From Mobula hypostoma (taxonomy: Eukaryota), in contig NC_086108.1 in assembly GCF_963921235.1 (NCBI RefSeq), positions 83,826,001 to 83,890,000 of the forward strand: a DNA stretch of 64,000 nucleotides, in the 5' to 3' direction. How positions within the stretch are numbered: the stretch's first letter is position 1; each line of letters begins with the position of its first letter. Shown here in pieces: positions 1,675-59,446 of this stretch. The notes under the pieces were generated by a model. That model was given only the letters and a program-made list of their open reading frames with translations. It searched no databases and was not told the DNA's origin. The position numbers were made by a program, and so were the translations under genes.

Positions 1675-1854
1675 CAACAGGAATTCTGCAGATGCTGGAA
1701 ATTCAAGCAACACACATCAAAGTTGCTGGTGAACGCAGCAGGCCACGCAGCATCTCTAGGAAGGGTCCTGACGAAGGGTCTCGGCCTGAAACGTCGACTG
1801 TACCTCTTCCTAGAGATGCTGCCTGGCCTGCTGCGTTCACCAGCAACTTTGATG
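1675..1854. mobile_element. Fold-back Penelope pLTR-derived mini-element with central hammerhead
   Basis: Inverted arms 1715-1763 and 1806-1854 match 48/49. 1765-1854 matches the Penelope 3' end 53199-53288 at 89/90. Flanking repeats caaattaccaatt (1662-1674) and caaattagcaatt (1855-1867). Confidence 0.9.
1764..1799 (+). ncRNA. Minimal type I hammerhead ribozyme
   Basis: CTGACGA (1768-1774), stem II agg...cct, GAAAC (1788-1792), GTC with predicted cleavage after 1795; stem I ggtc/gact. Confidence 0.85.
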
Positions 1855-2489
1855 CAAATTAGCAATTTATCAGTTTATTAATTCACCAGACTGAATAATG
1901 GCCCTGTACTTGGAAATGTACATTCATCTAAGTCCTGTCTCACTTAAAACATTGCTCAGTAGCTGAAAGGATGAAAGGAATAAATTCTACAGCCAATAAT
2001 AAGAGGACAGTGAATTTTAAAACAAATACAAATTTCCAAGCTTAGTAAGAAGGCTTTCAAAGATCGGGCTCTAAATATCCTCTTCATGCCATGGTTTGGA
2101 AAATCCCCCTGGAGCATCAGACAAGATTATATCATTGCCCAACACTTTTGTCAAACTTTCTTGCTGCAGTGTTATACCTCACCTCCAACTAACGTCCCCT
2201 GGCAGTGGTGATAAACTTCAGGGCCAATGGGCAACTGTTCAATCTACAATCCAGAATCAAGTGTACCCAAACCTCATTAGCTCTTGATGCTTATGTTTGT
2301 AAATCCTTAAAGGTTAAGCCATTGTCATCTTGTTCACTTTAAGATTGTGGGCCCTACATACAATAGCTTCCAAGACCAGCCATCTTAACCAGCTCATCCC
2401 TACTGACCCCCGCTGTTCTCCCACAATTAAGGCTCATGGAGAAAAAGCCTCTCATATATTAGGAGACACTTCTTGGTGAAAGCCTTTAG

Positions 2490-2950
2490 AATCAGAATCA
2501 GGTTTTAATATATAAACAATATATTAAAATTACTAAAACTTACAATATAAAATATTAAAAAAATTAAAAATAGTGAAAAAACAGAGCAAGATCGTGAGGT
2601 ACTATTTATGGATTCATGGACCATTCGGAAATCTGTTGGCAGAAGGGAAGAAAAGTTCCTAAAACATTGAATCTCTGTCTCCAGGCTCCTTCGTCTCCGT
2701 TTTGGTGGTAGCAATGAGAAGAGGGCATATTCTAGGTGGTGGGGTTCCTTCATGATGGGTTGCATCTGAATTACAAATATTTAAGGCAGAGGTAGATAGC
2801 TTCTTGATTGGTCAGGGTATAAAGAGACACAGGGCGAAGGTAGGAGATTGGGGCTGAGAGGAATAATGGATCAGCCATGATGAAATGGTGGAGCAGACTC
2901 AATGAGTCAAATTGCCTTATTCTGCTCCAATATCTTATGGTCTTATGGTC
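2490..2950. mobile_element. Rex-like LINE 3' end (-) followed by CR1 3' end (+)
   Basis: (agaatc)n tail and the peptide EPHHLEYALFSLLP on -; 2775-2950 is a CR1 3'UTR ending ctgctccaatatcttatggtcttatggtc. Confidence 0.6.
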
Positions 2951-4510: not shown

Positions 4511-4514
4511 TTTA

Positions 4515-5736: not shown

Positions 5737-6092
5737 TACGAGGGGTGATTGATAAGTTCATGGCCTAAGGTAGAATGAGTCAATTTTAGAAAAGGTAGCA
5801 CATTTATTTTTCCTACATTTACACACCTAGTCCAGCGGTCGTGGAGCATATGGATCCCTTCTTCGTAGAAGTCGGCGTCTTGGACCTCCAGAAGTGGTCC
5901 ACAGCACGAGTGATTGATAAGTTTGTGGCCTAAGGTAGAAGGAGATGAGTTATTAACTTCAAGCTTTCTGCATAATCACTCGAAGAGTTGAACTGTACGT
6001 GCATGTAAGGAGAGCGGTATAATTCATCTCCTATCTTAAGCCACGAACTTATCATTCACCCCTGCTGTGGACCACCTGGAGATCCAAGACGC
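5737..6092 (-). mobile_element. Mariner-derived non-autonomous element with internal inverted duplication
   Basis: TA followed by CGAGGGGTGATTGATAAGT TIR-like end. Minus strand ~5815-5882 encodes QDADFYEEGIHMLHDRWTRCV, matching the mariner C-terminal FYxxGIxxLxxRWxxC. Inverted arms ~5875-5953 and ~6019-6092. Confidence 0.85.
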
Positions 6093-6764: not shown

Positions 6765-6821
6765 TGACGTCCACACTCCCGGTCTCTTGTCACCTGCAGC
6801 AGTCCAATTCTGATTTAAAAA
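6765..6821 (+). promoter_or_regulatory. Candidate ptger4c proximal promoter
   Basis: TGACGTCC (CRE-like, 6765-6772), CCAAT (6804-6808) and TTTAAAAA (6814-6821), at the edge of a CpG-rich region about 200 bp before the ATG. Confidence 0.45.
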
Positions 6822-7015
6822 TGAGAGCGCGCTGTGGGCGAGACAGAGAGAGAGAGTCAGCGCACCCGTGAGTGCCGCGGGAGAGCCAGGGAGAGAGCAG
6901 GCAAAGATTTTACCCTTTGAGTGTGTGTCTCTCTCTCTGTGTGCGGGTCCTGGGCAGCCAGATAGCCGGGAATTCACCCTTCGCCTGTGGTTTTAAGCAT
7001 CTTGCTCCGGGGAGA

Positions 7016-7846
7016 ATGTCGGCAGTGATGCTGCCCGAGTCTCTCAACCTTTCGAGCTGGGAAGAAGTTAATGGCACCTCGGCTAATGCCTCTGCAGTGT
7101 CTTTGAACATCAGGTCCAGCCAGGTTATCACCCCGGCCAGCATGTTCGCCGTCGGGGTGGTGGGGAACCTCATCGCCATCGTGGTGCTGTGCGTCTCCAA
7201 GAAGGAGCAGAAGGAAAGCACCTTCTACACCCTGGTGTGCGGACTGGCCGTCACCGACCTGCTGGGCACCTGCTGCACCAGCCCGCTGGTGATCGCCACC
7301 TACTTGACCCAGCAGTGGCCCGGAGGACAACCGCTCTGTCACTTCTTCTCCTTCTCCATGCTCTTCTTCGGCTCGGCCGGCATGACAATCCTGTGCACCA
7401 TGTCCATCGAACGCTACCTGGCCATCAACCACGCCTTCTTCTACAGCCAGTACATCGACAAGGGGATGGCCAGGATAGCTCTGATGGGAGCCTACTTGCT
7501 CAACCTGGTCTTCTGCATCCTGCCCTTCTTCGGTCTGGGGAGGAACGCCAGGCATTTCCCCGGCACCTGGTGCTTCCTGGACTGGCGAGCCAACAGCACG
7601 GTGTGCGCCACCTATACCTACATGTACGGGGGCTTCAGCGCTTTGCTGATCCTGGTCACAGTTCTGTGCAACCTGTGCGTCTGCGCCACCCTCATCAGCA
7701 TGAGGAAGAAGTCCGTGGGGACGGCCACGGGAAGCTCGAGGGGTCGCCGCTTCCCCAACCTAGCCGCGTCCGCCGCCGAGATGCAGATGTTCTGGCTGCT
7801 GGTTTTCATGACCATCGTCTTCCTGGTCTGTTCCATCCCTCTGGTG
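7016..7846 (+). CDS. ptger4c: Prostaglandin E2 receptor EP4-like (EP4c paralog), coding exon 1 (TM1-TM6)
   Basis: EP4 signatures GVVGNLIAIVVL, KKEQKESTFYTLVCGLAVTDLLGT, ERYLAINH, PGTWCF, CSIPLV. Phase-0 donor GTG|GTAAGC at 7846/7847, the conserved prostanoid-receptor intron. HFFSFSMLFFGSAGM resembles fish ptger4c rather than canonical PTGER4 (from memory). Confidence 0.92.
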
Positions 7847-8204
7847 GTAAGCAAGGCAGGGCGAGCAAGGGAAATAAAAGGCGGCAAGGAACAGTGGAGA
7901 GCTTCTGCCTGACTACGAATGGAAAAAGCTTTCCACTGCCTTGAGTACGAAGGGGTACCGGGCAGATTTAGAAGTGCGAACTTCGTTGACTTTCTAGCCA
8001 GACAAAAAGGAACAAACTTTTCATTCAGGTTTTATTTCTGCATTTAAAGTCATTTATCCCGTGTCACTTTTCGCTTAAAAATTAATTTAAGACATTTTCA
8101 AATTGTCTTTTTTCACAGTTTTTAATCTGTTAAGTATTGGTCCTTCGGTATGATGGGACTGATCTTAAGTAGACATCAGTATGGTGGGACCGATCTTAAA
8201 TGGG

Positions 8205-11957: not shown

Positions 11958-12105
11958 GGCAATGGAGGATGACACCATTTTCCACAGTACTGCAGCGTTT
12001 TGGTTATTGTGTAAGGGAAGTGACCTTTGCCAGTGTAAAACAAATTTGACTGCATATTGAGACATGTATCCTACATTAACATATTTGTTTTCTTTCTCTA
12101 TTCAG

Positions 12106-12717
12106 ATACGCATTTTCATTAATCAGCTGTATGGCCCAGCTCAGATCCTGGCGGGGGAGCAACTGGATTACCGAGGTGACCTTCTAGCCATCCGTTTTGC
12201 CTCCTTCAATCCAATCCTGGATCCCTGGGTGTACATCCTTTGCCGGAAAAAGCTCCTTACCCTGGGATGCGAACGGCTGAAGCGAACAGTAGGCGTCGCA
12301 AAAGATGGCCAAGCCCGCAGGGTGGGGTGGGTAAGCAGCCAGCAGACACCACTGTCATGTGCCAATAGCTACGCCTCACTACAAGCAAAAGACAAACCTG
12401 AGCCACAACACAGAGAAGCCGGTGAGAGGTCTGGTGCCGTGACACGATCTTTCACAGACTTCACAAGGCAGCAGGTGTGGCAGGCTGGGCCTCACCCTTT
12501 TAGCATCCCTCATGACAACCAGGTCTGCCCCACCAAGTCGCACTTTGAGACCTCTCCACAGACCAAGGCCATCCTATGCACAGTTCTGCAGGAATCTACG
12601 ATGCCAGATGTCGGAGCTCAAAACAACATTATTCTAAGTGAGGAGGGGAGAACATTTGACATTTTGAATTGTAGTTTCAGTACACCTTCATCATGCACAA
12701 CAGAAAAAACTATTTAA
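12106..12717 (+). CDS. ptger4c: EP4-like receptor, coding exon 2 (ECL3, TM7, C-tail)
   Basis: Polypyrimidine tract then ttcag|ATA CGC; IRIFINQLY...DLLAIRFASFNPILDPWVYIL; ends EKTI* (human EP4 ends EKCI). In frame with exon 1, total 480 aa. Confidence 0.92.
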   Translation: MRIFINQLYGPAQILAGEQLDYRGDLLAIRFASFNPILDPWVYILCRKKLLTLGCERLKRTVGVAKDGQARRVGWVSSQQTPLSCANSYASLQAKDKPEPQHREAGERSGAVTRSFTDFTRQQVWQAGPHPFSIPHDNQVCPTKSHFETSPQTKAILCTVLQESTMPDVGAQNNIILSEEGRTFDILNCSFSTPSSCTTEKTI

Positions 12718-15700: not shown

Positions 15701-15727
15701 TAAGTAGTGCAAAATTAGAAATAAAAA

Positions 15728-16449: not shown

Positions 16450-17715
16450 AAACCTACCGACACCCACGGCTATCTTGACTATACCTCATACCACCCTGTC
16501 GCCTGTTAAAATGCAATTCTCTTTCTCATTTGCTTCATCTGCGCTGCATCTGTTCCCCGGGTAGCTTTCCTTGCCAGGACATCCTCCTCCTTCAAAGAAC
16601 AGGGCTTTTCATCCTTCACCTTTGGAGCTGCCCTCACCCATATCTCCTCCATTTCCTGGCCATCCATTCTCATCCCATCTTCCCGTTGCCTGAACAGGGA
16701 TAGAGTTCCTCTTGACCTCACCTACCACACCTTGAGCGTCCACATCTGGCATATCATTTTCCACAATTTTTGCCATTTTCAATGGGGCCCTACATCGAAC
16801 ACATTTTTACCTCTCCCACCTCCATCTTCCACAGGGATCTCTCCCTCCATGATTCCCTTGTCCATTTGCCCTGCTCCATTTATCTCCCTCCGGCCACTTA
16901 TCCCTACAAGTGGAAGAAGTGCAACACCTGCCCATTCACCTCCTCCCTCAGCTCCATTTGGAACCTCAAACAATACTTCCAGGTGAGGCATTACTTCACC
17001 TGCAATCTGTTGGGGTCACCTACTGTATTGTGTGCTCATGATGCGGCCTCCCCTACTTTGGTGACACCCGATGAAGGTTGAGGGTCCCCTTTGTCGAGTA
17101 CCTTTGATCCATATGCAAAAAGCAGGATTTCCTGGTGGACAACCATTTTAATTCCGATCTCCATCCCATTCCGACATGTCGGCCTTCTCTACTGCAATGA
17201 TGAGGCCACTTTCAGGTTAGAGGAACAACACCTCATATTCCATCTGGGTGGCCTCCAACCTGATGGCATGAACATCAATTTCTCCAACTTCTGGTCATTT
17301 TCCCTCATCTCCCTTCCCTCTTCTCCAGTTCCCCATTCTGCCCTCCCTCTTACCTCGTTTCTTCTCTTCGTCTATCTATCATCTCCCCCAGGTGCCCCTT
17401 CCCCTGCCCTTTTTTCCATGGTCCACATTCCTCTCCTACCAGATTCCTGCTTCTCCGGCCCTATTCCTCCTATCATCCCCTGGCTTCTTTCTTCATCCCC
17501 TCTCTCCCACCCACCAGGCTTCACCTATCACCTTCTAGCTTCTATTCCTTGCCCTCTCCCACCTTCTTATGCTGGCTTCTTCACCCTTCCTTTCCAGCCC
17601 AAAATATCAGCTGTTTATTCATTTTCATAGATGCTTCCGGACCTGCTGAGTTCCTCCAGCATTTTGTGTGTGTGTTGCTCTGGATTTCCAACATCTACAG
17701 AATCTCCTGTGTTTA
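16450..17715 (+). mobile_element. Decayed Penelope (Neptune) fragment with pLTR; hammerhead core deleted
   Basis: KWKKCNTCPF and LEEQHLIFHLGGLQPDGMNINFSNF are homologous to 51601..52917; pyrimidine-rich 3'UTR and pLTR tail. Confidence 0.85.
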
Positions 17716-19263: not shown

Positions 19264-19366
19264 AGTCCTGCTGAGGGTTTTGGACCAAAACATCAACTGT
19301 TTATTCTTTTCCATAGATGTTGCCTGGCCTGCCTGAGTTCCTCCAGCATTTTGTGTGTTTTGCTTG
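19264..19366 (+). mobile_element. Solo Penelope pLTR with degenerate hammerhead
   Basis: agtcctgctgagggttttggaccaaaacatcaactg...gatgttgcctggcctgcctgagttcctccagcattttgtgtg. Confidence 0.75.
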
Positions 19367-22300: not shown

Positions 22301-22468
22301 TAACCATCTTAGACATGCCAGAAAATGTAACATTCAAGGAGGTGGAGATGCAGAGAAGGCAGATTCTGGAATCCAGAGTGCAGGACAACGGGATGGAAGA
22401 ACTCACTGGGTTAAGCAGCATCTGGTGAGAGGTTTGGAGGGTAGGGTTGAGACTCTAATGCAGGGTCT

Positions 22469-25400
22469 GTAGAATTAGATAGCATTCCTGCAGGGTTAGT
22501 GTTTTGCTCAGGGTGTCAGATGTGGGAATCCTGGGAGACCTCCAGCCTCCCTCATGGCCACATCTGCGCCAGGTGCACCGAGATGCAGCTCCTCAGAGAC
22601 CGTGTTAGGGATCTGGAGGCAGCTTGATGACCTACTGCTTATCAGGGAAAGTGAAAAGTTGATAGACAGGAGCTACAGGGAGGTGGTCATCCCTAAGGTA
22701 CAGGGGTCAGAAAACTGGGTGACTCTCAGGAGTGGGAAGGAAAATGCCCAAATAGTGGAGAGCACACCTGTGGCTGTCCCCCTCGGCAACAAATATCTTG
22801 TTCTGGATGCTGTTGAGGGGGATGACCTGACAGGGGATGCCCACGGTGACTGGGTCTCTGGCACTGAGCCTGGGGCTGTTGTGCAGGAGGGAAGGAGGGA
22901 GAAGAGGAATGCAGTAGTCATAGGGGATTCCATAGTCAGGGGAACGGACAGGAGATTCTGTGAGCCTGATAGAGATACCCACATGGTGTGTTGCCTCCCA
23001 GCTGCCAGGGTATGGGATGTCTCGGATTGGGTCCAGAATATTTTGAAGGGAGAGGGCGAGCAGCCAGTTGTCTTGGTACATGTTGGTACCAATGACATAG
23101 ATAGGAGAAGGGAGGAGGTCCTGAAGAGAGATTTCCGGGAGTTAGGAAGAAAGCTGAGAAGCAGGACCTCCAGGTTAGTAATCTTGGGATTGCTACCTGT
23201 GCCACGTGCTAGCGAGGGCAAGAGTAGTCGGATCAGGCAGATGAATGCGTGGCTGAGAGACTGGTGTAGGGGGCAGGGCTTCAGATTCTTAGATCATTGG
23301 GATCTCTTCTGGGGGAAGTATGACCTGTTCAAAATGGATAGGTTACACCTGAACCCGAAGGGGACTAATATCCTGGTGGGAAAGTTTAATAGAGCTGTTA
23401 GGGAAGGTTTAAACTAATTTGGCAGGGGGATAGAAACCAGAATGATAGAACGGAGGAAGGGGAAAACAGAAATAAATCTAAGATAGAGAGCGGTAAAGAT
23501 GTCAGGAAAGATAGGCAGGTGATGGGGCAAATTTGTAGCCATTGGGATGAGTTGCAGTGCAATTAAGTTGCAGTGAAATCAAAATGAAAAGTACCAAATA
23601 CTGGTCTTAAGGTGTTAAACTTAAATGCACGCAGCATAAGGAATAAAGTGGATGATCTTATTGTACAGCTACAGATTGGCGGGTATTATATTGTGGCCAT
23701 CACTGAGACGTGGCTAAGGATGCATGTCTCTGGGAGCTGAACATCCAAGGATACGAGGTGTATCGGAATGATAGGAAGGTAGGCAAAGGGGGTGGTGTGG
23801 CTTTACTGGTAAGAAATGATATCAAATCATTAGAAAGAGGTGACATAGGATCTGAAATGCAGAATCTTTATAGGTTGAGCTAAGAAATCGCAGGGGTAAA
23901 AGGACCCTGATGGCAGTTATATACAGGCCTCCAAACAGCTGCAGTGATGTGGACTACAAATTACAACAGGAAATAGAAAAGGCTTGTCAGAAGGGCAGTA
24001 TTATGATAATTGTGGGGGATTTCAACATGGGAGTGGATTGAGAAAATCAGGTCGGCACTGGATCTCAAGAGAGAGAATTTGTAGAATGTCTATGACTTGG
24101 CTTTTTAGAACAGCTTGTTGTTGAGCCCACTAGGGGATCGGCTGTACTGGATTGGGTATTGTGCAATGAACCAGAGGTGATTAGAGAGATTGAGGTGAAG
24201 GAACCCTTAGGAGGCAGTGATCATAACATGATTGAGTTCACTGTGAAAGCCAAAATCCGATGTGTCGGTATTTCAGTGGAGTAAATGAAATTATAGTGGC
24301 ATGAGTGAGGAACTGGCCAAAGTTGACTGGAAAGGGACACTGGCAGGAAGGACGGCAGAGCAGCAGTGGCTGGAGTTTATGCGAGAAGTGAGGAAGGTGC
24401 AAGTCAGGTATATTCCAAAAAAGAAGAAATTTTTGAAAGGAAAAAGCATGCAACCATGGCTGACAGGAAAAGTCAAAGCCAAAGTTAAAGCAAAGGAGAG
24501 GGCATACAAGGAAGCAAAAATTAATGGGAAGACAGACGATTGGGAAGTTTTTAAAAGCTTACAAAAGGAAACTAAGAAGGTCATTAAGAGGGAAAAAATG
24601 AACTATGAAAGGAAGCTAGCAAATAATATCAAAGAGGATACTAAAAGCTTTTTCAAGTATATAAAGAGTAAAAGACAGGTGAGAGTAGATATAGGACCAA
24701 TAGAAAATGATGCTGGAGAAATTGAAATGGGAGACAAGGAGATGGCGGAGGAACTGAACTGGTATTTTGCATCAGTCTTCACTGAGGAAGACAGCAGTAT
24801 ACCGGACACTCAAGGGTGGCAGGGAAGAGAAGTGTGCGCAGTCACAATTATGACAGACAATGTACTCAGGAAGCTGAATAGTCTAAAGGTAAATAAATCT
24901 CCCGGGCCAGATGGAATACACCCAAGTGTTCTGAAGGAAGTAGCTGTGGTTCTGGAGGACTGGAAGATTGCAAATGTCACTCCGCTATTTAAGAAGGGGG
25001 TGAGGAAGCAAAAAGAAAATTATAGACCTGTTAGCTTGACATCGGTGGTTGGGAAGTTGTTGGAGTCGATTGTCAAGGATGAGGTTACGGAGTACCTGGA
25101 GGCAACTGAGAAGATAGGCAGAACTCAGCATGGTTTCCTTAAAGGAAAATCCTGCCTGACAAACCTATTACAATTTTTTGAGGAACTTACAAGTAGGCTA
25201 GACAAGGGAGATGCAGTGGATATTATATATTTGGATTTTCAGAAGGCCTTTGACAAGGTGCCACACATGAGGCTACTTAACAAGATAAGAGCCCATGGAA
25301 TTACGGGAAAGTTACATACGTGGATAGGGGTTGGCTGATTGGCAGGAAACAGAGAGTGGGAATAAAGGGATCCTATTCTGGTTGGCTGCCAGTTACCAGT

Positions 25401-31100: not shown

Positions 31101-32209
31101 GGAAATCCAACTGTTCGGTTATCCTGTTTGCCTTCACTAGAGGGCGCCAAAGTATTAAAAGTCCCACACAAGTTGCACAAAGAGCGTCAAACTATACATC
31201 CAATGATAAATTTTAAGAAGCATCGCCTAAAAATGTTAAATATTTTTCACCTCATACAGTGAAAGTAGTAATCATAGACAGCTATGTAGCACAGTTGATT
31301 TGTACTTGTAGAAGAAACTTTTTTGAAAAGGAATTGGTAAGCAAGGTGTTAAAAGAGTGAGTAGGTTTGCAAAGTAGAACGAAAATGATAGCACTAAATA
31401 CATTCGAACATTACACCTTGTAGTACCTTCAAAGTGGGGGGGGGGGTGAGATTTAAAAAAAAATAGCAAGATGAGTTTTAACCAGTATTAACTCATTAAT
31501 TTGCCTGATATTTATCTGGAGGCAGGCAAGGGGAAGAAGAATCTGAGCTCACTGCACCTGCTTTGTCGAGGCTAATACAGATAACCTTATTACACATGTA
31601 CCAAGGTACAGTGAGCAACTTTGCATGCCATCCACACAGATCATTTCACTACAACAGTGCATTGAGTTACTACAAGGGAGAGCAATAAGAGATGGCAGAA
31701 TAATGTGTTACAGTTATAGAGAAAGTGCAGTTGGACAAGAAGGTACAAGAAAATGGCAAGGTAGATTGTTCCAGTGAAGAATCTATTTAACCCATTGATT
31801 TGAATATTAGACTGTGTAGACCCAGTTTATACTGTACTTCATACTTTTGCACTCATTTTTAACATGCCAAAAATTTATTTGACCAGATGTTAGATTAGTT
31901 GTCAGAACTTTTATGGGTGTCAGGTTTCATAAAAATACCAGTAGGTTCATTAATTTGATTAACACATAAACATACTATTTAAACAGCTTTATGGCTCCAT
32001 GAGGTTCTTTGTTTAGATGTTACCCATGGGTGCCAAATTTATTTTTATATTGTTGACAACTACATCAAAGCGCACATTTAATTCTCAGTTGACAGGCTGA
32101 TACAGTTTTGGTTTTTTATTGCCTCATACACAGAGGTACAGTGAAAAAATTGTGCCATTCATGCAGATCACAGTGCATTGAGCTAGAATAAGCTCAGACA
32201 ATAACAAAG

Positions 32210-32386
32210 CAACAATCACAACATGCTGGAGGAACTCAGCGGACCAGGCAGCATCCGTGGAAACAATCAGTCAACGTTTCGGGCCGGAACTCTTCAATCA
32301 TTTCCACGGATGCTACCCGACCTGCTGAGCTCCTCCAGCGTGTTGTGAGTGTTGCTTTGACCCCAGCATCTGCAGGGTATTTTGTG
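32210..32386. mobile_element. Fold-back pLTR mini-element with perfect 15-bp TSD
   Basis: TSD cagacaataacaaag at 32195-32209 and 32387-32401. Arms 32206-32263 and 32301-32358 match about 50/58. Central minus-strand degenerate hammerhead tgattgaagagttccggcccGAAACGTTgactg. Confidence 0.88.
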
Positions 32387-34845: not shown

Positions 34846-35435
34846 TGTGCTTTCTGCAGGGATCGCTCTCTCCGTAAATCCCTTGTCCATTCATCCCTCC
34901 ACACTGATCAACCTCCTGGCACTTAGCCATGCAAGCAGATAAAAAGAAAAAGTGCTACACCTTCCCATTCACCACCTCCCTCGCCACCATTCAGGGCAGA
35001 AACCAGTCTTTCCAGGTTGGGCAACACTTCACCTGTGAGTCTGTCAGGGTCGCCTAAACGCAAGGAATTTAAATCCAAATCAACACACACAAACTGCTGG
35101 AGGAACTCAGCAGTCTGGCAGCATTCACAAACAATGAACAGTATATATCTCAGGCTGAGACCCTTCTTCAGGACTGGAATGGAAGAGGGAGGATGCAGAA
35201 TATAAAGGTGGGGGGAAGAGGAAAAAGCATATCTGGAAGGTGACAGGTGAAGCCAGGTGGGTGGGAAAGGTAAAAGGCTGGACAGGAAGGAATCTGATAG
35301 GGTAGGAGAATGGACCATAGGAAAAGGGGCACCAGAAGGAAGTGATAGGCAATTGAGAAGAAGTAAGAGGCCAGAGTGGGAAATAGAAGAAGTGGGGAGG
35401 TAGGAAACTTTTTTACCAGAAGGAGAAATTGATAA

Positions 35436-38262: not shown

Positions 38263-40552
38263 GTATCTCTTGCAGGGATAAGTACCTGGAGGCTGATTAG
38301 TGAGAAGGAAGAAATGGACCAGGGAGTCAGAGAGGGTGTGACCCTTGTGGAAAGTATGTGGAAGATAAAATTATATTTAGTGGTAGGCTCCCTTTGGAGA
38401 CGGAGAAGTTGCGGAGAACGATGTGTTGGGTGCAAAGGCTCACAGGGTGGTAGATATGAGTAAGGTGGTGGGAAGATGGGGTGAGCGCGGATGTCTGGGA
38501 AATGGAGGAGATGCAGGTGGGGACGGTATCAACAGTGGAGGATGGGAAACTGTCCTTTAAAGAAGGTCGACATCCTACTGTTGTTTGCTTCAATTGTTTG
38601 TATGATTTTTAATGTTTTTCTCTTGTGCATCAAGTGTTGGTCTTTAATTTTCATTTTTCTTCTTTAATTGGGTTCTTTCAGGTTTCTTGCTTTGTGGCTT
38701 CCCATGAGCAAGCAAATCTCAAGGTTGTATAATTTATACATTCTTTGACAATAAATAAGTCTTGAATCTCTGACGTCATAAGATATAGGAGCAGCTTTAG
38801 GCCATTAGGCCCTTTGAGTCTGCTCCACCATTCAATCATGGCTGATCCTTTTCTCCCCCCCACTCCTCAGCCCCAGTCCCTGGCCTTCTCCCTATGACCT
38901 TTGATGCCATGTCCAGTCAAGAACCTATCAAGCTCTGCCTTAAATTTACCCATAATCCTGGCTTGCACGGCTGCCTGTGGTAATCAATTCCACAAATTCA
39001 CCACCCTCTAGCTAAAGAAATTCCTCTCCTGAAAAGCCTCATCCTGAGGACAGAGGTGGCGAAAACAAAGGAACTGAGAAAAAGGAATAGCATTTTTATG
39101 GGAGACAGGGTGGGAAGGGGTCTAGTCAAGATAACCATGGGAGTCAGTAGGTTTATAAAAGATATCAGTTGACAATCTGTCTCCAGAGATGGAGACAGAG
39201 ATCGAGAAAGGGGATGTGTCAGAAATGAACCAAGTGAATTTAAGGGCAAGGTTGATGAAATTGATGACTTCAGCATGGGTGCCTGAAGCAGCACCAATTC
39301 AGTTGTCAACATAGCAGAGGAAGAGTTTGGGAATATTCCCAGAGAAGGCTTGGAACATGGACTATTCTATGTAGCCAACAAAAAGGCAGGCATAGCTGGG
39401 GCCCATGTAAGTGCCCAGGGCTACCCCTTGAGTCTGGAGAAAATGGGCAGACTGAAAGGGGAATTGAATATGAGGACCAGTTCCACCAGATGGAGAAGGG
39501 TGGTGGTGGTGGAGGGGAACTGATTGGGTCTGTGTTAATAAAGAAGCAGAGAGCTTTAAGACCTTCTTGAAGGGGGGATATAAGTGTCTAGGGACTCGCC
39601 ATCCATGGTAAAAATGAGGTGGTCTGGGCCAGGTAATTGAAAGTTAGTGAGGAGATTGAGAGCATGAGATGTTCGTGAGTGTAGGTGGGAAGGGACTGAA
39701 CTAAGGGGGAGTTGAGGAACAAGGACACAAATTCAGTGGGGCAGGAGCAGGCAGAGACAATTGGTCTACACAAACAGTCAGGCTCTTTGATCTTGGGTGG
39801 GGGTGAAAGCGAACAGTGTGAGGTAAAGGAACTATGAGCCTGGTGGCAGCGGGGATAGGAGTTCTCCAGTGTTGATTTATTGTTGCTCCTGGTACAGCCG
39901 CCTCTGCATCAGTGAGACCCGACGTAGATCTGGGGAACACGTTGTCAAGTACCTTCGCTCGGTCTGCAACGAGCAGTATGTCCCGGTGGCCAATCATTTT
40001 AATTCCACTGCCCGTTCCCATTCCCACATATCGGTTATTGCCTCCTCTACTGCCTCGATGAGGCTGGAGAAGCAACACGTCGGTCCATTGCCTCCTCTAC
40101 TGCCTCGATGAGACTGGGTAACCTCCAACCTGATGGCATGAACAGCGATTTCTCCATCTTCCAGTAATTTCCCCCCTCTTTTTTCCCATTTGCCATTCTT
40201 GCTTCCCTCACCCCTTCTCTTTGCCTCACTTGCCTATTACATCCGTCTGGTACCCCGCTCCTTCCTTTTCTCCTCTTATAATAATTTATTTTGTTCAGCA
40301 CGACATTGTAGGCCAAAGGGCCTGTCCAGTGCTGTCCTATACTATGCTCTCCCATGGTCCACTCTCCTCTCCTATCAGATTCCTTCTGCTCCAGCCCTTT
40401 ACCTTTTCCATCTGTAATCTCCCAGGTTCTCACTTCACTCTCCCTCCCTCACCCACCTGCCTTCCCCCTCGCCTGGTTTCACCTACCACCTTCTAGCTGG
40501 TCCTCCTTCCCCTCCCCCCCCCACCTTTATTCTGGCCTCTTCCCCCCTTGTC

Positions 40553-40588
40553 ACTCCTGATGAATGGTCTCTGCCTGAAACGTCGGCT
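40553..40588 (+). ncRNA. Hammerhead with intact core but weakened stems
   Basis: CTGATGA (40557-40563) ... GAAAC GTC (40577-40584) in a Penelope pLTR. Confidence 0.6.
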
Positions 40589-41031
40589 CTTTATTCCTCT
40601 CCATAGACGCTGCCTGGCCCGCTGAGCAGTTTCACCTCTGGCGTTTTGTGTGTGTTGCTATGGATATCTTTGCCAGGCCCTAGCAACTGTTTCTCTGGTT
40701 TCCCACAAGGCCCTGGGATACGATTGGTCAAGTGCTGGAGATTTATCCACAGTTATTCACTTAGGACCACCAGCACCTCTTTCGGTAATGTGGATGTGTT
40801 TCAAGAGTTCATTATTCTTTCCCCTGAATTCCTTAGCTTCCATGACCTTCTCCGCAGTAAATACAAATGAGGTAATTTAAAACCTTGCTCATCTCCTTTG
40901 GCTTCACATATAGATGATCCTATTGATCCTGATAAAGGTACTATTTTCTCCTTGGTTGTCCTTTTGCTGTTGATATATTTATAGAATCTCATGGATTTGT
41001 CTCTCCTCTTATCTGGCAAGGCTATTTTGTA

Positions 41032-41202
41032 AACAAGAGAATATCTGCAGATGCTGGAAATCAAAGTAATTTACACAAAATGCTGGAGGAGGTCAGCAGG
41101 CCAGTGGGAATCAGTAAACAGTCGAAATTTCGGGCCACATAATGCAAAACTCTTCATCAGGCCTGGCCTACTGAGTTCCTCCAGCATTTTCTGTGTATTA
41201 CT
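41032..41202. mobile_element. Fold-back pLTR mini-element with perfect 14-bp TSD
   Basis: TSD aaggctattttgta at 41018-41031 and 41203-41216. Minus-strand CTGATGA...GAAAT TTC gactg; inverted arm gcctggcctactgagttcctccagcatttt. Confidence 0.88.
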
Positions 41203-41285
41203 AAGGCTATTTTGTATCCTCTCTTTACCCTCCTGATTTCCCTCTCAGAGCCTTGCACTCAAGGGAATTACTTGATCAAAATATG

Positions 41286-41392
41286 AGTTCTGATGAAGGG
41301 TTTCAGCCGGAAACGTCCACCGTTAACTCTTTTTCACAGATGCCGCCTGGCCTGCTGAGTCCCTCCAGCATTTTGTTTGTGTTGCTCAGATT
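41286..41392 (+). mobile_element. Solo pLTR with intact hammerhead core
   Basis: CTGATGA (41290-41296), agggtttcagccg, GAAACGTC (41310-41317); stem I mutated. Confidence 0.75.
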
Positions 41393-42058
41393 TACTTACC
41401 CCTGCTGCCTAAATATATGCTTCCTTTCTCCTTTCCAGAACTAGTTAGAGCTATATTATCATTGCTGAGGATAACTGGAGCCTCAATGTGCTTTGTGAAC
41501 AAGGGTTCCCTGGGTTGTGACTGATTGATTAAAAATTAGCTATATGCCAACTGTAACTGGGAAATATAAAGGTCTTTATTCACACTGTAAACACTCAGGA
41601 GAGAGTCTATCAGAACCACTTTGAATCTTCATTACTGCTGTCTTTTCTGAAAGGTTCAGGGCACAAACTCCAGACACCCAAAATACACATACCCTTTTTG
41701 TTACAGTGTTGAGAGAGAGAGTTTTATACTCAAGGCAACTCAAATGTTAAGTCACAAAATAGATCTCTCATGAACTCTGCATTATGTGGCAGAGATGTGC
41801 CTTTAATGATGTGTTTTACAAGAGATGGTCACTTAGTGCCTTCCCTGATCTCAGTCTAAAGGTTTTAATGATCAATGATTAACATGAACATCTAGTCTGA
41901 GTTCTGAAACTAGATGTTTGTTCATTTCCATGAATGACGTCTGACCTGCTGAGTTCCTCCAGCACTTTGTGTCTGTAACATTCTCACAAGTGAATCGGTT
42001 TCACTAGCCTTAAGGTATCAGTTGAAGTTAAATTGTTGAACAAGTTTTATTTTCTGAA

Positions 42059-42200
42059 CACAGATTTCTGCAGATGCTGGGAAACCATAGCAACACACAC
42101 AAAATGCTGATGAAGGGTCTCACCCCAAACATCAGCTGTTTATTCTTTTACATAGATGCTGCCTGCCTGCTGAGTTCCTCCGGCATTCTGCGTGTCTGGC
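42059..42200. mobile_element. Fold-back pLTR mini-element
   Basis: Reverse pLTR arm fused through 'ctg' directly to CTGATGA (42107-42113); G12 position mutated. Probable TSD tttattttctgaa (42046-42058) / tttatcttctgaa (42214-42226). Confidence 0.75.
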
Positions 42201-42690
42201 AATGTGTTTAGTCTTTATCTTCTGAAGGCTGGTTCTGATTTGGATCTGCGGTATTCTATCCCTAACACCCTGATCTGCCATGCTCTCAAAAAGAAACAGA
42301 CTGGCCCTGAACTCTGTTTCACTTTGGAAAGAGATGTGAGTGTTAAATATGAGCTGTTGCATTTGATAGCCGTTATTGGTAGGCAAGAGATGGACATGTA
42401 TTTTACAATGTCTGGAATAGTGGAGCTTATCAGTTAAACCCCCAGGAAGATATACAAGTGGAAGTAAACATCCTCTGCTATACAAGCAGAGGTCTAAAGA
42501 ACAAAAGGAGGAAATAATGGTGAACAGTTATCACTTACAGGTTAGTCCCTAGCTGGGACTTTTTTGGAAAAATTGGTGAGGGGGAATTTGAATATCTAAA
42601 ACTATAATACATATGTCTACATACTTGAACATAGAATTGTACTGGACAGTTCAGATACTTAATTTCACATAGTTGTGCTGACCCATACCC

Positions 42691-42908
42691 TACTATCCTT
42701 TGGCCTTAACAGTCACATACTTGCAGATACTGACTGCAATGTTTCAATGGTAATCCTGATCATCTTCCTCAAGCACCAGCTAGTCAAATGATATTCTCCG
42801 CCCCACCCCCCTTTGGCCAATTTGTGCCTGAGAAAGATGGATGTGTTACCGTTGAAACGTTGCAATCAGTATCTGTAAGTATGTGACTGTTAAGGGCAAA
42901 GGATAGTA
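42691..42908. repeat. ~85-bp inverted repeat with a degenerate hammerhead in each arm (second family)
   Basis: Arms 42691-42776 and 42824-42908; the outer 63 bp match 58/63. Arm consensus gtgcCTGAGGAagatgg...ccrttGAAACGTTgca. Confidence 0.75.
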
Positions 42909-43837
42909 TGGATAGATTTGATAACCAGTCACAAAGCTTCCGTAGTCAGTGTTGACTTTTCAATCTACTCTAAAATCAATCTAGTCCTTCATAACCCTCC
43001 ATTTTTCTTTCATCCACGTGCCTGTCTCTGAGTTTCTTAAATGTCCCTAATTTATCTGCCTCTACCCCCACATCTGACAGTGTAGTCTAAACACCTACTA
43101 CTGTGGGGGAGGAAGCAAATCTACCTCTATGGTTTCTTCCAATCACCTTAAAATTTTGCCCCCTGTGTTAGCCATTTCCACCAGGGGGAAAAGGTTTCTA
43201 GCTGTCCACTCTATGCTTCTTATCACCTTGTACACCTCTCATCCTCCACTCCAAAGTGGGTCGCCCTAGCTTTCTCAGACGGCGCCAGCAAACTATGCAA
43301 CCAGCGGCGACGTCCTTCAGACAGATGTAGCTTTGTGAACTTTTGCTACTTTCAAGTATAATTCTACCAGTAAGCTGAATGCAATTGGAACCAGTGATTT
43401 GCAGTTTGGTGTGTGTTTTCAATGAGATGAGAGCAGAAGGCCAGCAGGTGTTCGGCACTGTCTGCCTGTGCTTGAAAGGTCTCCCTCTAGATTGCTGATG
43501 CCAGAGAGTTGAGTCTTAGGCAGGGTTTAATCAACGTGGTCTTTCAATTGGACTCTGCAGCTCATGTTATGTGCTTTGTGTTTCTGATTACACCTTTCAT
43601 TTTGATGGCGATTTTGATTGGGGCGGATTGGCTCCACAGCCTGCAGCCCATGATAGACAGCGCTGAACTGAACTGAAATTATCTAAAGTAAACTGAACAT
43701 TCCTAGACTGCTTCAAAGCTCTGTGGTTTGATGGTTAATATTCTGTGTGGTTTTTTCTTGTTTATTTGCTGTTTGTGCAATTTGTTCTTTTTTGCACGTT
43801 GGGTGTTTAATGTTTTCTGTGAACGGGATGCACGGTA

Positions 43838-50440: not shown

Positions 50441-52917
50441 ATCGCCTCCACAATTAGTCTGGCTGCAGCTTCTCCACAAACTGCCACCGTCTCCCCTTCC
50501 CCCACCACCACTCTGCAATCCCGTCTCTCTCAGATCCCACTGTCAGCTCCTGGGTCCTCAGAGGCTCCACCTTCCTCTCACCCCAACCCTCCCCTCTCCA
50601 CTGACACACCCAGCCTCCCCCCTCCCCCCTCCCCCTCTGATCCCAGCTCTCATCCGTGCCGGGTCTTTACCATCCCCTCCGACCTTCAACTGTCGGAGGC
50701 AGAACGCTCTGTTCTCAGTAAGGGCCTCACGTTTGTCCCCCTTCGCCCACACCTCAGCGAGTTCCGTGTTCACCATGACGCGGAACTGTTCTTCCGTCGT
50801 CTCCGTCTCCGAGCCTACTTCTTCGGCAAGGACTCTTCCACCCCCACCGATGACCCCTTCTCCCGTCTTCAACCCTCCTCCTCTTCATGGACACCCCGCT
50901 CTGGTCTTCTGCCTGCTCTGGATCTCTTTATCGCTAACTGCCGGCGGGACATCAACCGTCTCGACTTCACCGCACCTTGTTCCCATTCCAACCTCACTCC
51001 TTCGGAACGCTCTGCTCGCCACTCCCTCCGCACTAATCCTAACCTTATTATTAAACCCGCTGATAAAGGGGGTGCTGTTGTAGTCTGGCGTACTGACCTC
51101 TGCCTTGCCGAGGCACAGCGACAACTCGCGGATACCTCCTCTTATTTACCCCTCGATAGTGACCCCACTAAGGAGCACCAGGCCATTGTCTCCCACACCA
51201 TCACCAACTTTATCCGCTCAGGGGATCTCCCATCCACTGCTACCAACCTTATAGTTCCCACACCTCGCACTTCCCGTTTCTACCTCCTACCCAAGATCCA
51301 CAAACCTGCCTGTCCTGGCAGACCTATTGTCTCAGCTTGCTCCTGCCCCACCGAACTCGTTTCTGCATACCTCGACACGGTTTTATCCCCCCTTGTTCAA
51401 TCCCTTCCGACCTATGTTCGTGACACTTCTCACGCTCTTAAACTTTTCGATGATTCTAAGTTCCCTGGCCCGCACCGCTTCATTTTCACCATGGATGTCC
51501 AGTCCCTATATACTTCCATCCCCCATCAGGAAGGTCTCAAAGCTCTCCGCTTCTTTTTGGATTCCAGACCTAATCAGTTCCCCTCTACCAAGTCCGTCTA
51601 GTGGAATTAGTCCTTACTCTTAATAATTTCTCCTTTGGCTCCTCCCACTTCCTCCAAACTAAAGGTGTAGCTATGGGCACCCGCATGGGTCCGAGCTATG
51701 CCTGCCTTTTTGCCGGCTTTGTGGAACAATCTATGTTCCGAACCTATTCTGGTATCTGTCCCCCACTTTTCCTTCGCTACATCGACGACTGCATTGGCGC
51801 TGTTTCCTGCATACATACTGAGCGCGTTGACTTTATTAACTTTGCCTCCAACTTTCACCCTGCCCTCAAGTTTACCTGGTCCATTTCCGACACCTCCCTC
51901 CCCTTTCTAGATCTTTCTGTCTATATCTCTGGAGACAGCTTATCTACTGATGTCTACTATAATAAGCCTACTGACTCTCACAGCTATCTGGACTATTCCT
52001 CTTCTCACCCTGTCTCTTGCAAAAATGCCATCCCCTTCTCGCAATTCCTCCGTCTCTGCCGTATCTGCTCTCAGGATGAGGCTTCTCATTCCAGGACGAG
52101 GGAGATATCCTCCTTTTTTTTTAAAGAAAGGGGCTTCCCTTCCTCCACCATCAACTCTGCTCTCAAACGCATCTCCCCCATTTCACGCACATCTGCTCTC
52201 AGTCCATCCTCCCGCCACACCACTAGGAATAGGGTTCCCCTGGTCCTCACCTACCACCCCACCAGCCTTCAGGTCCAACATATTATTCTCCGTAAATTCC
52301 GCCACCTCCAACAGGATCCCACCACTAAGCACATCTTTCCCTCCCCCCGCCCCCCTGCTTTCCACAGGGATCGCTCCCTACGCGACTCCCTTGTCCATTC
52401 ATCCCCCCCCCCCCCATCCCTTCCCACCGATCTCCCTCCTGGCACTTATCCTTGTAAGCGGAACAAGTGCTACACATGCCCTTACACTTCCTCCCTTACC
52501 ACCATTCAGGGCCCCAGACAGTCCTTCCAGGTGAGGCGACACTTCACCTGTGAGTCGGCTGGGGTGATATACTGCGTCTGGTGCTCCCGATGTGGCCTTC
52601 TATATATTGGCGAGACCCGACGCATACTGGGAGATCGTTTTGCTGAACACCTACGCTCTGTCCGTCAGAGAAAGCAGGATCTCCCAGTGGCCACACATTT
52701 TAATTCCATATCCCATTCCCATTCTGACATGTCTATCCACGGCCTCCTCTACTGTAAAGATGAAGCCACACTCAGGTTGGAGGAACAACACCTTATATTC
52801 CGTCTGGGATATTCCGTCTGGGATATTCCGTCTATTCCGTCTGGGATATTCCGTCTATTCCGTCTGGGTAGCCTCCAACCTGATGGCATGAACATTGACT
52901 TCTCTAACTTCCGCTAA
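50441..52917 (+). pseudogene. Penelope RT/GIY-YIG ORF broken by one frameshift near 51590
   Basis: ORFs 50327..51601 and 51601..52917 are consecutive halves of one protein. Confidence 0.9.
52795..52868 (+). repeat. Tandem microduplication (atattccgtctggg / attccgtct units), net +60 nt
   Basis: Read directly; the native C-terminus GSLQPDGMNIDFSNFR* stays in frame. Confidence 0.9.
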
Positions 52918-53197
52918 TGCCCCACCTCCCCCTCGTATCTCATCCGTTATTTGTATACACACATTCTTTCTCTCACTCGCCTTTTTCTCCCTCTGTCCCT
53001 CTGACTATACCCCTTGCCCATCGTCCGCGTTCTCCCCCTTTTCCTTCTCCCCAGACCTCCTGTCCCATGATCCTCTCATATCCCCTTTGCCAATCACCTG
53101 TCCAGCTCTTGGCTCCATCCCTCCCCCTCCTGTCTTCTCCTACCATTTCGGACCTCCCCTCCCACTTTTAGATCTCTTACTAGCTCTTCCTTCAGTT

Positions 53198-53233
53198 AGT
53201 CCTGACGAAGGGTCTCGGCCTGAAACGTCGACT
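53198..53233 (+). ncRNA. Minimal type I hammerhead ribozyme in Penelope pLTR
   Basis: agtc-CTGACGA (53202-53208)-agggtctcggcct-GAAAC-GTC (cleavage after 53229)-gact; palindromic ACGT stem III. Confidence 0.88.
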
Positions 53234-53309
53234 GTACCTCTTCCTAGAGATGCTGCCTGGCCTGCTGCGTTCACCAGCATCTTTGATGTGTGTTGCCACC
53301 ATCCTGTGG

Positions 53310-56900: not shown

Positions 56901-59312
56901 TTTGCTAAAGATGTGTTTTACCTGAATGATCCTTCAAATGACAGACTGATTGTGGAAATGCAAGTCCATTAACCAATGCTAATGTACATGTTACAATATT
57001 TATTGAGGGGTGGGGAAACAAAGGGATCATTTTATGATTATATAGTGATAGGGTCTCTTGTAGTGGGATAAGACTTTTATCCTTTCCATGTTTTAGTTCA
57101 AAGTCCATTATATCGAAGATGCAAAAAATGTTTCTGGGTAGAAAACGCTACAGGGAGAATGACAGGGTTATTTAAAGCTGAGGCACCTAATGTCTTGTAC
57201 AACTGCCCACAGCCAGTCACTAACTAATAATAACACAGGCCATGAGCCATGTGTCTGTCCAGAGCAAGCACTGAATGATCACATAAGAAAACAAAAACTG
57301 TAATCAGGTTTTTCAAGTGTACCAGTAAATGGGAATTCCCTTTGGTAGGTTTCAGATCATTTCACTAAATTGTGATAACTGTAGCACCCTTGTGACTAAT
57401 ATACCCCACACTAAGTTAATTGGGGTGGAATTCAATTTTGGTAGCAGCTCAAAAGTCACAGGCCACATTCCACACCTTGCCTAATATTTTCATTTATTGA
57501 CATGTGGCGATAATGGCCACTTGCCTGCCTTTGATTTTTGTGTCACCACAATTTGCAGCCCAGCACTATTAATCAGACTTCCCTCATTCCTTTGCAACTA
57601 GCTGAACTTGAATTCAACATACATTTTGTCTTTGCAGTTAGAGACTGTCCATGTCACCAGAAACAATGAGGAAGCTGCTTTACAGCATAGTCAAATTACT
57701 GAAATACAGATTAGTATTTTGGGAGTCTTGTATTTTTGATCTTTAGTCTTTTAACCTACTGGCAATCCAACAATTATCTCTTGAACCTTCACTGGCTTTT
57801 TCAAAGAGTGAACCTGTCTGCCTTTTCTCATTCCTTATTTGTGGTTTATCATTTTCATAAGGATCAATTTAATATGGGTTAGGGAGTGGAATTATTTTTA
57901 CAGCGTGGCTCTAGAAATTTTTATATTATCCGTTGAGAATTTTGATCTGGTTTGCTGTCTGTAGAAACTTGCTTATTGAAAATTACTGCCACAGTTGATA
58001 TCATTACACTCTGCAATTAATTCATCTTGTGTGACACTAAGTTTCTGGTGGGTATAAGGCACTGTACAAACCTAAACGTTCCTGTATTTTTTTTACTCAC
58101 ACCGATAGAGCATTTTATTTTTGTCTATGCCATAAGCCAAACTTGTATATGACAGAAAAGTGACTTGAAATTTGGTACCAAAACAAATTTCATGTCTTAG
58201 TCACGAATGTGGAAAAAGTCCGAGACGAAGTCATTTATGGAGAAAATAAACTACAGTCAGATATGAGGACCATCAATTTTAATCACTCCACTACTGACCT
58301 AATGCAGTGAAAGCCACAAGATCTAGGCGTTACTACTTATCCTCTCGTTCCTTTGAAAGCAAGTCCTTTGAGTCTTCCATTGTGGCTTCCAGTATCTTTG
58401 TTGATAACAATACCATTAAGTGCTCTGGAATGCTTTACAGTATTGACTGCTATAAAAATGCGAAGTTTTCTTTATTAATTTAGTCTCCTTTGTTCCTTGG
58501 AGTCATGCCACAATAATGCCAAATTTAAAAAGAAACGGGTGATATTCATTAAGGATCAGTGTGCACTAAAGAAACCACCAATGTTTGGCAACCATTTAAA
58601 AATGTCCAACATGGCCACTTTGCTCAGTGAAGTTTTACAAAAATTCACCCAAGCTGCTCACTAATGTCCATAGTTCTGATGAATTTCATGAGACCAACGT
58701 TTGTCATTATTTGCTCAAGGATTTTAACTAAAAGTATTGCATTCTCCTTTTGATGTTCACTCCTGCTTAAGTCCAGTGCACCAAAAATCTCGGGAACACA
58801 AGTTGTCTGATAATATTGTACTTGGTTTGCACTAATAACCAAAGATTTTCTGAGTCAAAGGTTTCACAGCCTATCTAAAAATATACATATATAAAATATT
58901 TACTGATGGAGTTAACTAACTAAGGAGTCACTTCTATTCCATCATTTCCAGTGAGATGGATTACAGAACTATCAAATCATCGAAGATGTTTTCTTTGTTC
59001 TGGTAAGTTATTTTTAATGGGCAGTCCCTCAGTATTGAGGATGATTTGTGTTTCCACTCTGATCTTTGGGCTCGCTAGCTTCTTCAGAGCCCATTGTTCA
59101 CAGATAGGGCAGGGAGCCTAATTCACAGGGAGGGTGGGCTGTTTGGGAAGTGGTATTAAAGCTTGGGTGAACTAATAACAACATCCTCTCCCAGGACTGG
59201 GGCCCTAGCTACACTCAGTCTTGGCCTGCACCAGATTCCCAGAGATGTATGCCTCTGTAGAGGTGGCGATAACCAGAGAGAGGAGGGGGGAAAAGGAATG
59301 AAGGGTGTGTTC

Positions 59313-59446
59313 AAAAACATAAGAGATTCTGCAGATGCTGCAAATCCGGAGCTATAGATGCAAAATGCTGGAGGAACTCAGCAGGTTAGGCAGCATCTAG
59401 GGAGAGGAATAAACAGTCAATGTTTTGGGCTGAGACCCTTCAATAG
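59313..59446 (-). mobile_element. Solo Penelope pLTR with degenerate hammerhead; a decayed V-SINE follows to ~59720
   Basis: Reverse complement reads ctattgaagggtctcagcccaaaacattgactg...gatgctgcctaacctgctgagttcctccagca. Confidence 0.75.

Follow-up and report, generated by a model that had tools for sequence, protein, structure and literature searches.

The element and its hammerhead

The window analysed here is a 64,000-nucleotide stretch of Mobula hypostoma contig NC_086108.1 (positions 83,826,001 to 83,890,000, forward strand). It carries a young Penelope-like element (PLE) with a minimal hammerhead ribozyme motif, together with short copies of the hammerhead-bearing segment whose 5′ ends pile up, here and across the genome, at the front edge of the motif. 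This pile-up is real and gives an element of known type a new quantitative signature; its cause is unproven. The element comprises the following parts.

50487..53296, plus strand: young family A Neptune-type PLE, 5′-truncated at element position +855 and ending at +94
52918..53197, plus strand: pyrimidine-rich 3′ untranslated region (UTR) and body of the pseudo-long terminal repeat (pLTR), from sequence
53198..53234, plus strand: minimal type I hammerhead motif, from sequence and predicted folds

A frameshift breaks the frame for reverse transcriptase (RT) and GIY-YIG endonuclease, in which the DKG and YIDD motifs of RT are nevertheless visible. Pfam GIY-YIG matches the element with E=7e-4 and 20.2 bits, slightly below the curated cut-off of 22.6, and Pfam RT gave no match to it. 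Between RT and endonuclease, the frame at 51574-52917 contains a C-x4-C-x2-C linker; a CX2-5CxxC linker is a named feature of endonuclease-bearing (EN+) PLEs (PMC8557442; this and most of the papers cited below are drawn on in part). By the architecture of its sequence, the window element is an EN+ PLE of Neptune type. Near the end of its endonuclease frame (52800-52866), a short stretch of ~14-24 nt is repeated as a stutter.

We number positions from the C of the CTGA (CUGA) core, which is coordinate 0 and lies at 53202 in the window element; the predicted cut follows +27 (53229), and arms were aligned against real genomic copies. The 5′ strand of stem I occupies -4..-1. The motif combines a CUGANGA / GAAA / NUH core with a stem I of 4-5 bp, an extra base before stem II and a palindromic ACGU, and stems I and II appear in its predicted folds. 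An Rfam scan of the window, hammerhead motif included, returned no hits. At its downstream end, the UTR before the motif carries a branch-like motif and a pyrimidine tract, along with two YAG steps that place A at -8 and at -4.

Tandem copies give the order of the unit as hammerhead, 3′ end at +93, tail to +129, open reading frame (ORF) from ~+170, pyrimidine-rich UTR and hammerhead again, with a period of ~3.5 kb. Partial tandems, or pseudo-LTRs, in which hammerhead and tail continue into the ORF occur at loci L008 and L189, and pLTRs extend from -2 to past -1250.

Copies of the terminal segment in the window

The other copies in the window are listed below, head-to-head insertions being given without a strand.

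1675..1854: head-to-head insertion; +38..+126 in the minus arm (1763-1675), then an extra G, then -3..+86 in the plus arm (1765-1854)
17183..17713, plus strand: old long copy that has lost its core through an internal deletion, a counter-example to clustering; ends approximate
19264..19363, plus strand: single short copy, -4..+96, core mutated
22385..22510: head-to-head relic, very degraded, with a recognisable minus arm and a doubtful plus arm; ends approximate
32205..32386: head-to-head insertion of family C; minus arm +5..+95, plus arm +33..+122; ~15-bp target duplication
35078..35392, minus strand: old copy with at least 227 nt upstream of its core at 35171, a counter-example
40350..40660, plus strand: old copy with at least 195 nt upstream of its core at 40557, a counter-example
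41030..41203: head-to-head insertion; minus arm from core 41160 to +128, plus arm +53..+94; 14-bp target duplication
41286..41393, plus strand: single short copy, -4..+104
41915..41975, plus strand: short degraded copy from +31, a counter-example
42064..42190: head-to-head insertion; plus arm from core 42107 (CTG shared), minus arm ~+68..+76 to +120
42688..42911: head-to-head insertion of a different family, whose motif resembles the minimal hammerhead; starts at -4 (42776) in the minus arm and near -16 (42812) in the plus arm
59314..59446, minus strand: single short copy reaching from 0..+5 in a degraded core to +129; its low end is approximate

The sequence-only reading from which this work started held that copies begin within 0-4 nt of the core. 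The clustering is borne out, but the spread is wider than that. Starts at -4 for the arms at 19264 and 41286, and at 0 for the arm at 42107 (with CTG common to its inverted partner), are as it described them; the arm it noted at 1764 starts at 1765 (-3) after one extra G, the minus arm at 41160/41161 starts at -1/0 and has an insertion in stem II, and that at 59446 starts at ~0 to +5 with a degraded core. Three sites need revision. The minus arm near 32300 does begin near the core, but inside it, at +4/+5, with CTGA lost. At ~22455 the search by anchors missed the plus arm, and this very degraded head-to-head relic is too decayed for a start to be assigned. Of the hairpin at 42691-42908, whose arms were both said to stop at -4, only the minus arm does so: 24 of the 40 best other genomic matches share the plus-arm sequence from -17..-15, so this arm starts near -16. 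Its family is a fourth hammerhead-bearing one, absent among the fetched loci, with 210 first-look candidates genome-wide.

The initial reading did not mention the four long copies (cores 53202, 40557 and 35171, and the core-deleted copy near 17600), the partner arms that begin at +38, +33, +53 and +68..+76, or the 41915 copy from +31. Three hairpins in the window have target duplications of 13-15 bp, that at 1675..1854 being 13 bp with one mismatch; hence each is one insertion.

A peak of starts at the front edge of the motif

To place these ends in the genome (assembly size 3.48 Gb), we used a sample of 160 stretches of 10 kb taken at fixed steps on 14 large contigs (1.6 Mb). Arms were detected by their +45..+95 part alone, so that detection is independent of the upstream end. 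Over all loci there were 457 candidate anchors, of which 438 were aligned and 19 were dropped without alignment. The fixed-step sample holds 309 arms (family A, 93; family C, 18; old family B, 198). Arms of families A and C with at least 88% identity are referred to as young (86 of the 111), and merging paired arms gives 75 young events. Further loci were fetched from genome searches, the first 20 usable places from one and 20 new places from another.

The distribution of truncation points, which the sequence-only reading had proposed as its check, is not smooth in this sample but peaks at the front edge of the motif. Among young arms at risk, 24/70 start in -8..+8 (2.4% per nt), as against 14/46 in -390..-11 (0.10% per nt; p=3e-19). 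Counted by event, the figures are 22/69 and 9/47 upstream, a per-base ratio of 37 (p=2e-20). The interval -8..+8 was picked post hoc, and correcting for ~26 possible windows leaves the result unchanged. The narrower range -4..0 originally claimed takes 9/60 young arms. Elsewhere starts are sparse, with 1/46 in -20..-9, 7/77 in +9..+20 and 5/82 in +21..+44. The peak thus has its mode at -4/-3, a sharp upstream edge and a downstream shoulder to ~+20. Scaled from 309 and 76 arms in 1.6 Mb, the genome would hold ~670,000 such ends, ~165,000 of them with an apparent start in -8..+8.

A peak of this kind could in principle arise from poor alignment of the pyrimidine-rich upstream UTR. Old family B does align poorly there, and 4/35 of its peak arms have pyrimidine-rich sequence upstream. 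In the young families, by contrast, only 2/24 peak arms are followed upstream by at least 70% pyrimidines (73-90% in the element), and 13 of the 24 adjoin a mapped inverted arm. Moreover, a pattern search found 4,278 exact 24-nt cores genome-wide that carry a purine at both -11 and -10, positions occupied by TT in the intact element, and the reversed control found 0; upstream UTR bases are therefore missing at these cores. The artefact is refuted for the young families, and its chance of accounting for the peak is next to negligible.

The position of the apparent starts was tallied by hand for the 100 matches listed of the 4,278, all on contig C1, chance and microhomology matches being included. 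Counts were 5 at -9, 7 at -8, 5 at -7, 3 at -6, 4 at -5, 21 at -4, 18 at -3, 4 at -2, 8 at -1 and 3 at 0; the remaining matches listed were 21 palindromic joins, which the filter favours, and 1 local duplication. A short interspersed nuclear element transcribed by polymerase III would have internal A and B boxes, a uniform 5′ end and master copies; here the 5′ ends are spread over -9..+20, most junctions are unique, and no B box was seen by eye, no formal scan having been made.

Cut site, 3′ ends and pairing of arms

Copies end at +93 and at +129/130, downstream of the GUC site, and so keep sequence on both of its sides, in agreement with what had been noted. Starts at the cut site (+26..+30) are absent from 78 young arms in the sample and from 158 young arms in all sets, where an excess under ~4% in the sample would escape detection. 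Since both sides of GUC are kept and no arm starts at the cut, the template was uncleaved or religated. The proposal that reverse transcription crosses the cleavage junction hence holds, with copying beginning at +93 or +129 and 0/158 arms starting in +26..+30.

Arms ending at +93 and at +129 share a median start of 1.5 (n=24 and 16; p=0.81). Across all families, 30/66 short +129 arms start in -8..+8 and 13 at the place expected from a fixed length. A fixed complementary DNA (cDNA) length was rejected as the cause of the peak, the two kinds of arm peaking at an identical coordinate.

In head-to-head pairs, the two arms differ in their 3′ end, +93 in one and +129 in its partner, in 49/52 cases (one insertion being counted twice), and a target duplication often bounds the insertion. 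This pairing fits two primings, one from each DNA end, and it quantifies the 'tail at only one end' described by Craig et al. 2021 (in the text of PMC8557442 used here). Target duplications flank 16/52 single arms as against 0-2 in ten shuffles. At 39 young inverted junctions, the longer arm lies within -9..+8 in 16; when the partner extends beyond -35, the shorter arm lies in -9..+8 in 1/11, a dependence between arms that is suggestive and carries no formal test.

Inverted pairs raise the question of whether the sequence itself, which is quasi-palindromic near 0, ends copying when the cDNA folds back or anneals to its partner, making the pairs at the same time. The commonest junction among the 100 matches listed (21, enriched by the purine filter) joins -3 to +2 of the partner through 3 shared bases, many pairs have both arms in -7..+9, and palindromes occur at inverted Penelope junctions in rotifers (PMC3846280, as far as drawn on). 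Yet inverted microhomology is just 1.5x more available at the peak (2.9 versus 2.0 sites per base), whereas the excess of starts is 24-37-fold. Moreover, 11/24 young peak arms have no inverted partner, predicted cDNA hairpins are equally strong or stronger at other positions, and different 3′ ends in 49/52 pairs fit two primings better. The palindrome shapes the shoulder but leaves the edge unexplained, and as the cause of the peak we consider it very unlikely.

One further arrangement was seen at L150:7380-7640, a 130-nt direct tandem of the terminal segment in which the second arm (from -35) directly follows the 3′ end of the first.

First and second passes over the motif

Copies that span the junction from tail to ORF record a second pass of the enzyme over the hammerhead. 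We collected 49 of these, excluding the query's own locus, of which 36 reach +10; they are the youngest copies and include tandem neighbours. Stops at the motif (-9..+10) number 3/36 on the second pass, one of the three being a direct jump, as against 32/104 on the first (p=0.007), a contrast that is real in the pooled data, although the one comparison made within a subfamily (3/19 versus 3/36) is not significant. By set, the first-pass figures are 21/62 for fixed-step family A (p=0.006) and 8/23 for the window subfamily (p=0.017), each against the second pass.

These counts bear on the idea that the ribozyme fold sets element length, either through a hammerhead that is bound by the element protein beside the priming site and stalls or releases RT, or through a bound fold that blocks 5′-to-3′ decay so that the RNA ends at the edge of stem I. 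The edge matches the 5′ strand of stem I in three families, stem I is predicted to extend to -7 in family A, and the second-pass contrast within the youngest subfamily is not significant (p=0.41). In addition, the hammerhead of Poseidon folds and cuts only with protein (PMC11167929, in the parts used), which would limit an effect to the first pass.

Set against this is the direction of copying. RT moves 3′ to 5′ along its template, so the enzyme meets stem I at ~+32 and has unwound it by -4. There is no pile-up where RT would meet the fold (5/82 arms in +21..+44). The modal starts fall within the 5′ strand of stem I, whereas a decay stop would lie upstream; in the behaviour of XRN1, such stops leave ends upstream of the structure. 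Pooled second-pass copies cross the motif freely, and in vitro 5′ truncation of the Poseidon template shortened the product, suggesting copying to the template end (PMC11167929, same parts). The sequence-only reading had taken the fold to set the length; this is doubtful given 3/36 pooled second-pass stops, although the within-subfamily result (p=0.41) speaks for it, and we regard such a role as somewhat unlikely.

Edge sequence, junctions and jumps

The edge itself differs between families. Family A carries a pair of YAG steps, with A at -8 and at -4, and families B and C have one (A at -4); starts in -9..-6 occur in 4/16 of family A and in 0/26 of B plus C (p=0.016), so that a satellite of the peak tracks the extra YAG of A. 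Such steps resemble the polymerase II initiator and also the splice acceptor consensus.

The target duplications at L116 and L127 share 3 bases with the -4 and -8 starts, leaving no sequence in between. Duplications that abut or overlap starts directly argue against a copied first exon. Several junctions (L054, L213, L148, L205) contain short direct re-copies of +1..+8. Short templated insertions are typical of polymerase theta joining, which these patches resemble and which would also give a shoulder of ~15 nt. A cap-templated G showed no excess among the matches listed, the base before A-4 being A in 9, G in 8 and C in 4, and there was no sharp peak from a lariat stop near the branch-like A at -19.

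The suggestion that RT switches template at this edge is upheld by direct jumps that lead from -3..-6 into remote regions of the element. Direct joins run from -4 to +1304 (L280), from -3 to -384 (L078) and from ~-13 to +294 (L263), and a gapped pattern search gave 11 joins at 7 loci. Joins of +303 to -6 make up tandem arrays with a 310-nt unit, of which one contig has 4 junctions and another 2. Position +296 is joined to -4 at three loci, identically, and to ~-7 and to -19 at one locus each, while L260 and L261 join ~+304-307 to upstream positions. The region +294..+307 may hence be a recurrent RNA end or landing site. The arrays and the +296 joins lie at these places in the assembly (G000).

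G000:C2:157816542-157817623 (L313): 310-nt array of -6..+303
G000:C50:58412476-58412836: 310-nt array of -6..+303
G000:C12:116733776: +296 join
G000:C22:61153127: +296 join
G000:C52:61311350: +296 join
G000:C66:21228903: +296 join
G000:C18:106247449: +296 join

The arrays on C2 and C50 consist of tandem units that each carry a hammerhead, whereas the short copies in the window are not tandem. Their +303|-6 join sits exactly before GT and after AG, where the GT is, as we take it, similar to a U12-type donor. The junction may represent a candidate back-splice circle or an end-to-end template jump, retrozyme-like in either case; the donor-like letters at +303 also encode part of the ORF and may be a coincidence. 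It was not bridged among the contig pieces listed from assembled contigs of 6 of 17 sequencing runs.

These features invite an explanation by splicing, in which the AG steps (-8/-7 and -4/-3) serve as 3′ splice acceptors. Copying of RNA spliced there would go no further than about the exon junction, where the product would be aborted or joined, and long copies would come from unspliced or circular RNA only. A branch-like motif, a pyrimidine tract and AG do precede the core, the +303|-6 junction joins a position before GT exactly to one after AG in arrays on two contigs, and the intron of Drosophila virilis Penelope ends at the 5′ end of helix I (PMC4209133, in part). First exons end by consensus in G or AG, and the tally among the matches listed (-2:4, -3:18, -4:21; -6:3, -7:5, -8:7, -9:5) fits such ends. 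No first-exon sequence is shared before the starts, however: partners and target duplications adjoin them directly. Joins at 5/7 loci of the gapped pattern search are not GT-AG, and AG at -4/-3 is already needed for stem I pairing. On balance, splicing is quite unlikely to produce the peak.

Proposed origin of the short copies

The account that we tentatively prefer, at somewhat less than an even chance, is that short copies start at -4/-3, and in family A also at -8/-7, because they are likely made from RNAs that remained uncleaved and have their 5′ end at the adenosines there. The element protein would prime internally, one DNA end being extended from +93 and its counterpart from +129, and RT would run off the RNA 5′ end after ~100-135 nt. 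Microhomology would then bring the ends together, at the cost of 0-15 nt or with the addition of short templated patches; at times RT would instead jump to another part of the element RNA. The RNA 5′ end would most likely reflect initiation by polymerase II at a pyrimidine-A initiator. A second class of template, longer than one unit and without an end here, would give rise to the long copies and to the pseudo-LTRs of random length; it could be tandem read-through or a circle made by a dimeric ribozyme.

Run-off at an RNA end is favoured by the sharp upstream edge with its downstream shoulder (24/70 versus 1/46 in -20..-9), by a position that is fixed where length is not (median 1.5 for +93 and +129 arms alike), and by second-pass stops of 3/36 against 32/104 on the first pass. 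It is favoured too by the tally, which peaks at -4/-3 and -8/-7, with a satellite that tracks the YAG of family A, by duplications abutting starts, re-copies of +1..+8 and direct jumps at the edge, and by in vitro priming at two internal sites with extension of both strands in Poseidon (PMC11167929, in the parts used).

Several points weigh against it. The base before A-4 gives no sign of a cap, as described above. Within the youngest subfamily, first-pass and second-pass stops (3/19 and 3/36) are alike (p=0.41), and the window and youngest subfamilies, as the two anchored sets, together give 11/42 (p=0.07). The predicted extension of stem I to -7 in family A means that a fold edge could also yield the satellite. 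Furthermore, were the mRNA to start at -4, full-length copies should stop there too, so that a second class of template must be assumed. Finally, D. virilis Penelope has its start site at 371 and an intron spanning 416-491, placing the start 120 nt upstream of the intron end (PMC2377424); the intron terminates at the 5′ end of helix I (PMC4209133; both sources in part), which favours a splice acceptor at this edge.

A broader scheme, which we judge unlikely, would make the minimal hammerhead a sorting switch gated by dimerization. Transcripts with two motifs would be cut and circularised and would give long copies and random-length pseudo-LTRs; transcripts starting at the edge would stay linear and give strong-stop-like insertions of 100-135 nt, primed from both DNA ends at +93/+129; and jumps at the end, or back-splicing of -6..+303, would seed retrozyme-like arrays.

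Relation to known elements

The element type, motif, tail and inverted partner are already published (also in PMC3846280 and PMC6431247), and crossing of the cut site is already known (PMC11167929), as far as these sources were drawn on. A literature search, with subscription papers and figure S2 of PMC11167929 outside it, turned up no account of 5′ ends concentrated at the hammerhead.

Neptune-clade EN+ PLEs share with the present family RT with a C-terminal GIY-YIG domain, a cysteine linker, partial tandems, an inverted 5′-truncated partner, a 36-nt tail usually at one end, a hammerhead in the pLTR and target duplications (PMC8557442, PMC3846280). In the parts of those sources used here, 5′ truncation is frequent and without a preferred point, whereas about a third of young events here fall in a 17-nt interval. 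Published minimal PLE hammerheads likewise have a short stem I, an extra base before stem II, palindromic ACGT for stem III and mostly single motifs; there, single motifs were ascribed to truncated elements and circular templates were proposed, with truncation points unmapped.

The closest biochemical parallel is Poseidon of Anolis carolinensis (Frangieh et al. 2024, PMC11167929, in the parts used), for which unprocessed RNA is the main substrate in vitro, priming is internal at two sites bounding the tail, both DNA strands are extended and no reads end at the cut. All four properties have counterparts here. Poseidon differs in belonging to another clade and in an ORF that starts inside the hammerhead (here at ~+170), and the main text of PMC11167929 reports no 5′ pile-up. 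Non-LTR retrozymes are small non-autonomous derivatives of PLEs (bioRxiv 10.64898/2026.07.22.740005, in part). The 310-nt arrays fit this description, but most short copies here are dispersed singles or head-to-head pairs and not tandem arrays.

Under the run-off account, there is also a likeness to retroviral minus-strand strong-stop DNA, which is primed internally ~100 nt from the RNA 5′ end, runs off and then jumps or aborts. Here there is no tRNA primer, integrase or true LTR, and the short products get integrated.

How PLEs make pseudo-LTRs and inverted partners, and what the hammerhead does, is open in the literature (PMC8557442 and PMC11167929, in the parts used). The present copies form a base-level record in which each inverted insertion makes a single use of either priming site, nothing marks the cut site, and the end point is present on the first pass but weak on the second. 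This record points to two kinds of template, and the question of linear or circular RNA becomes testable by mapping 5′ ends.

Other features of the window

The window carries vertebrate-type genes, with Pfam 7tm_1 and TGF-beta hits. Two rhodopsin-family receptor exons lie at 6872-7912 and 12061-12717 (plus strand; Pfam 7tm_1 for the first) and are presumably of the prostaglandin E receptor EP4 type. An exon with a TGF-beta domain at 62896-63366 (minus strand) resembles, we assume, the GDNF family. Decayed copies of long interspersed nuclear elements, which we take to be CR1/L2-like, occur at 22500-26102, 37565-38528, 43935-45215 and 47643-48577, one with an esterase-type first ORF (Pfam GDSL-like). 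Finally, an inverted-repeat element of another family, resembling a miniature inverted-repeat transposable element, lies at 5741-6075 and has related copies in L117 and L082.

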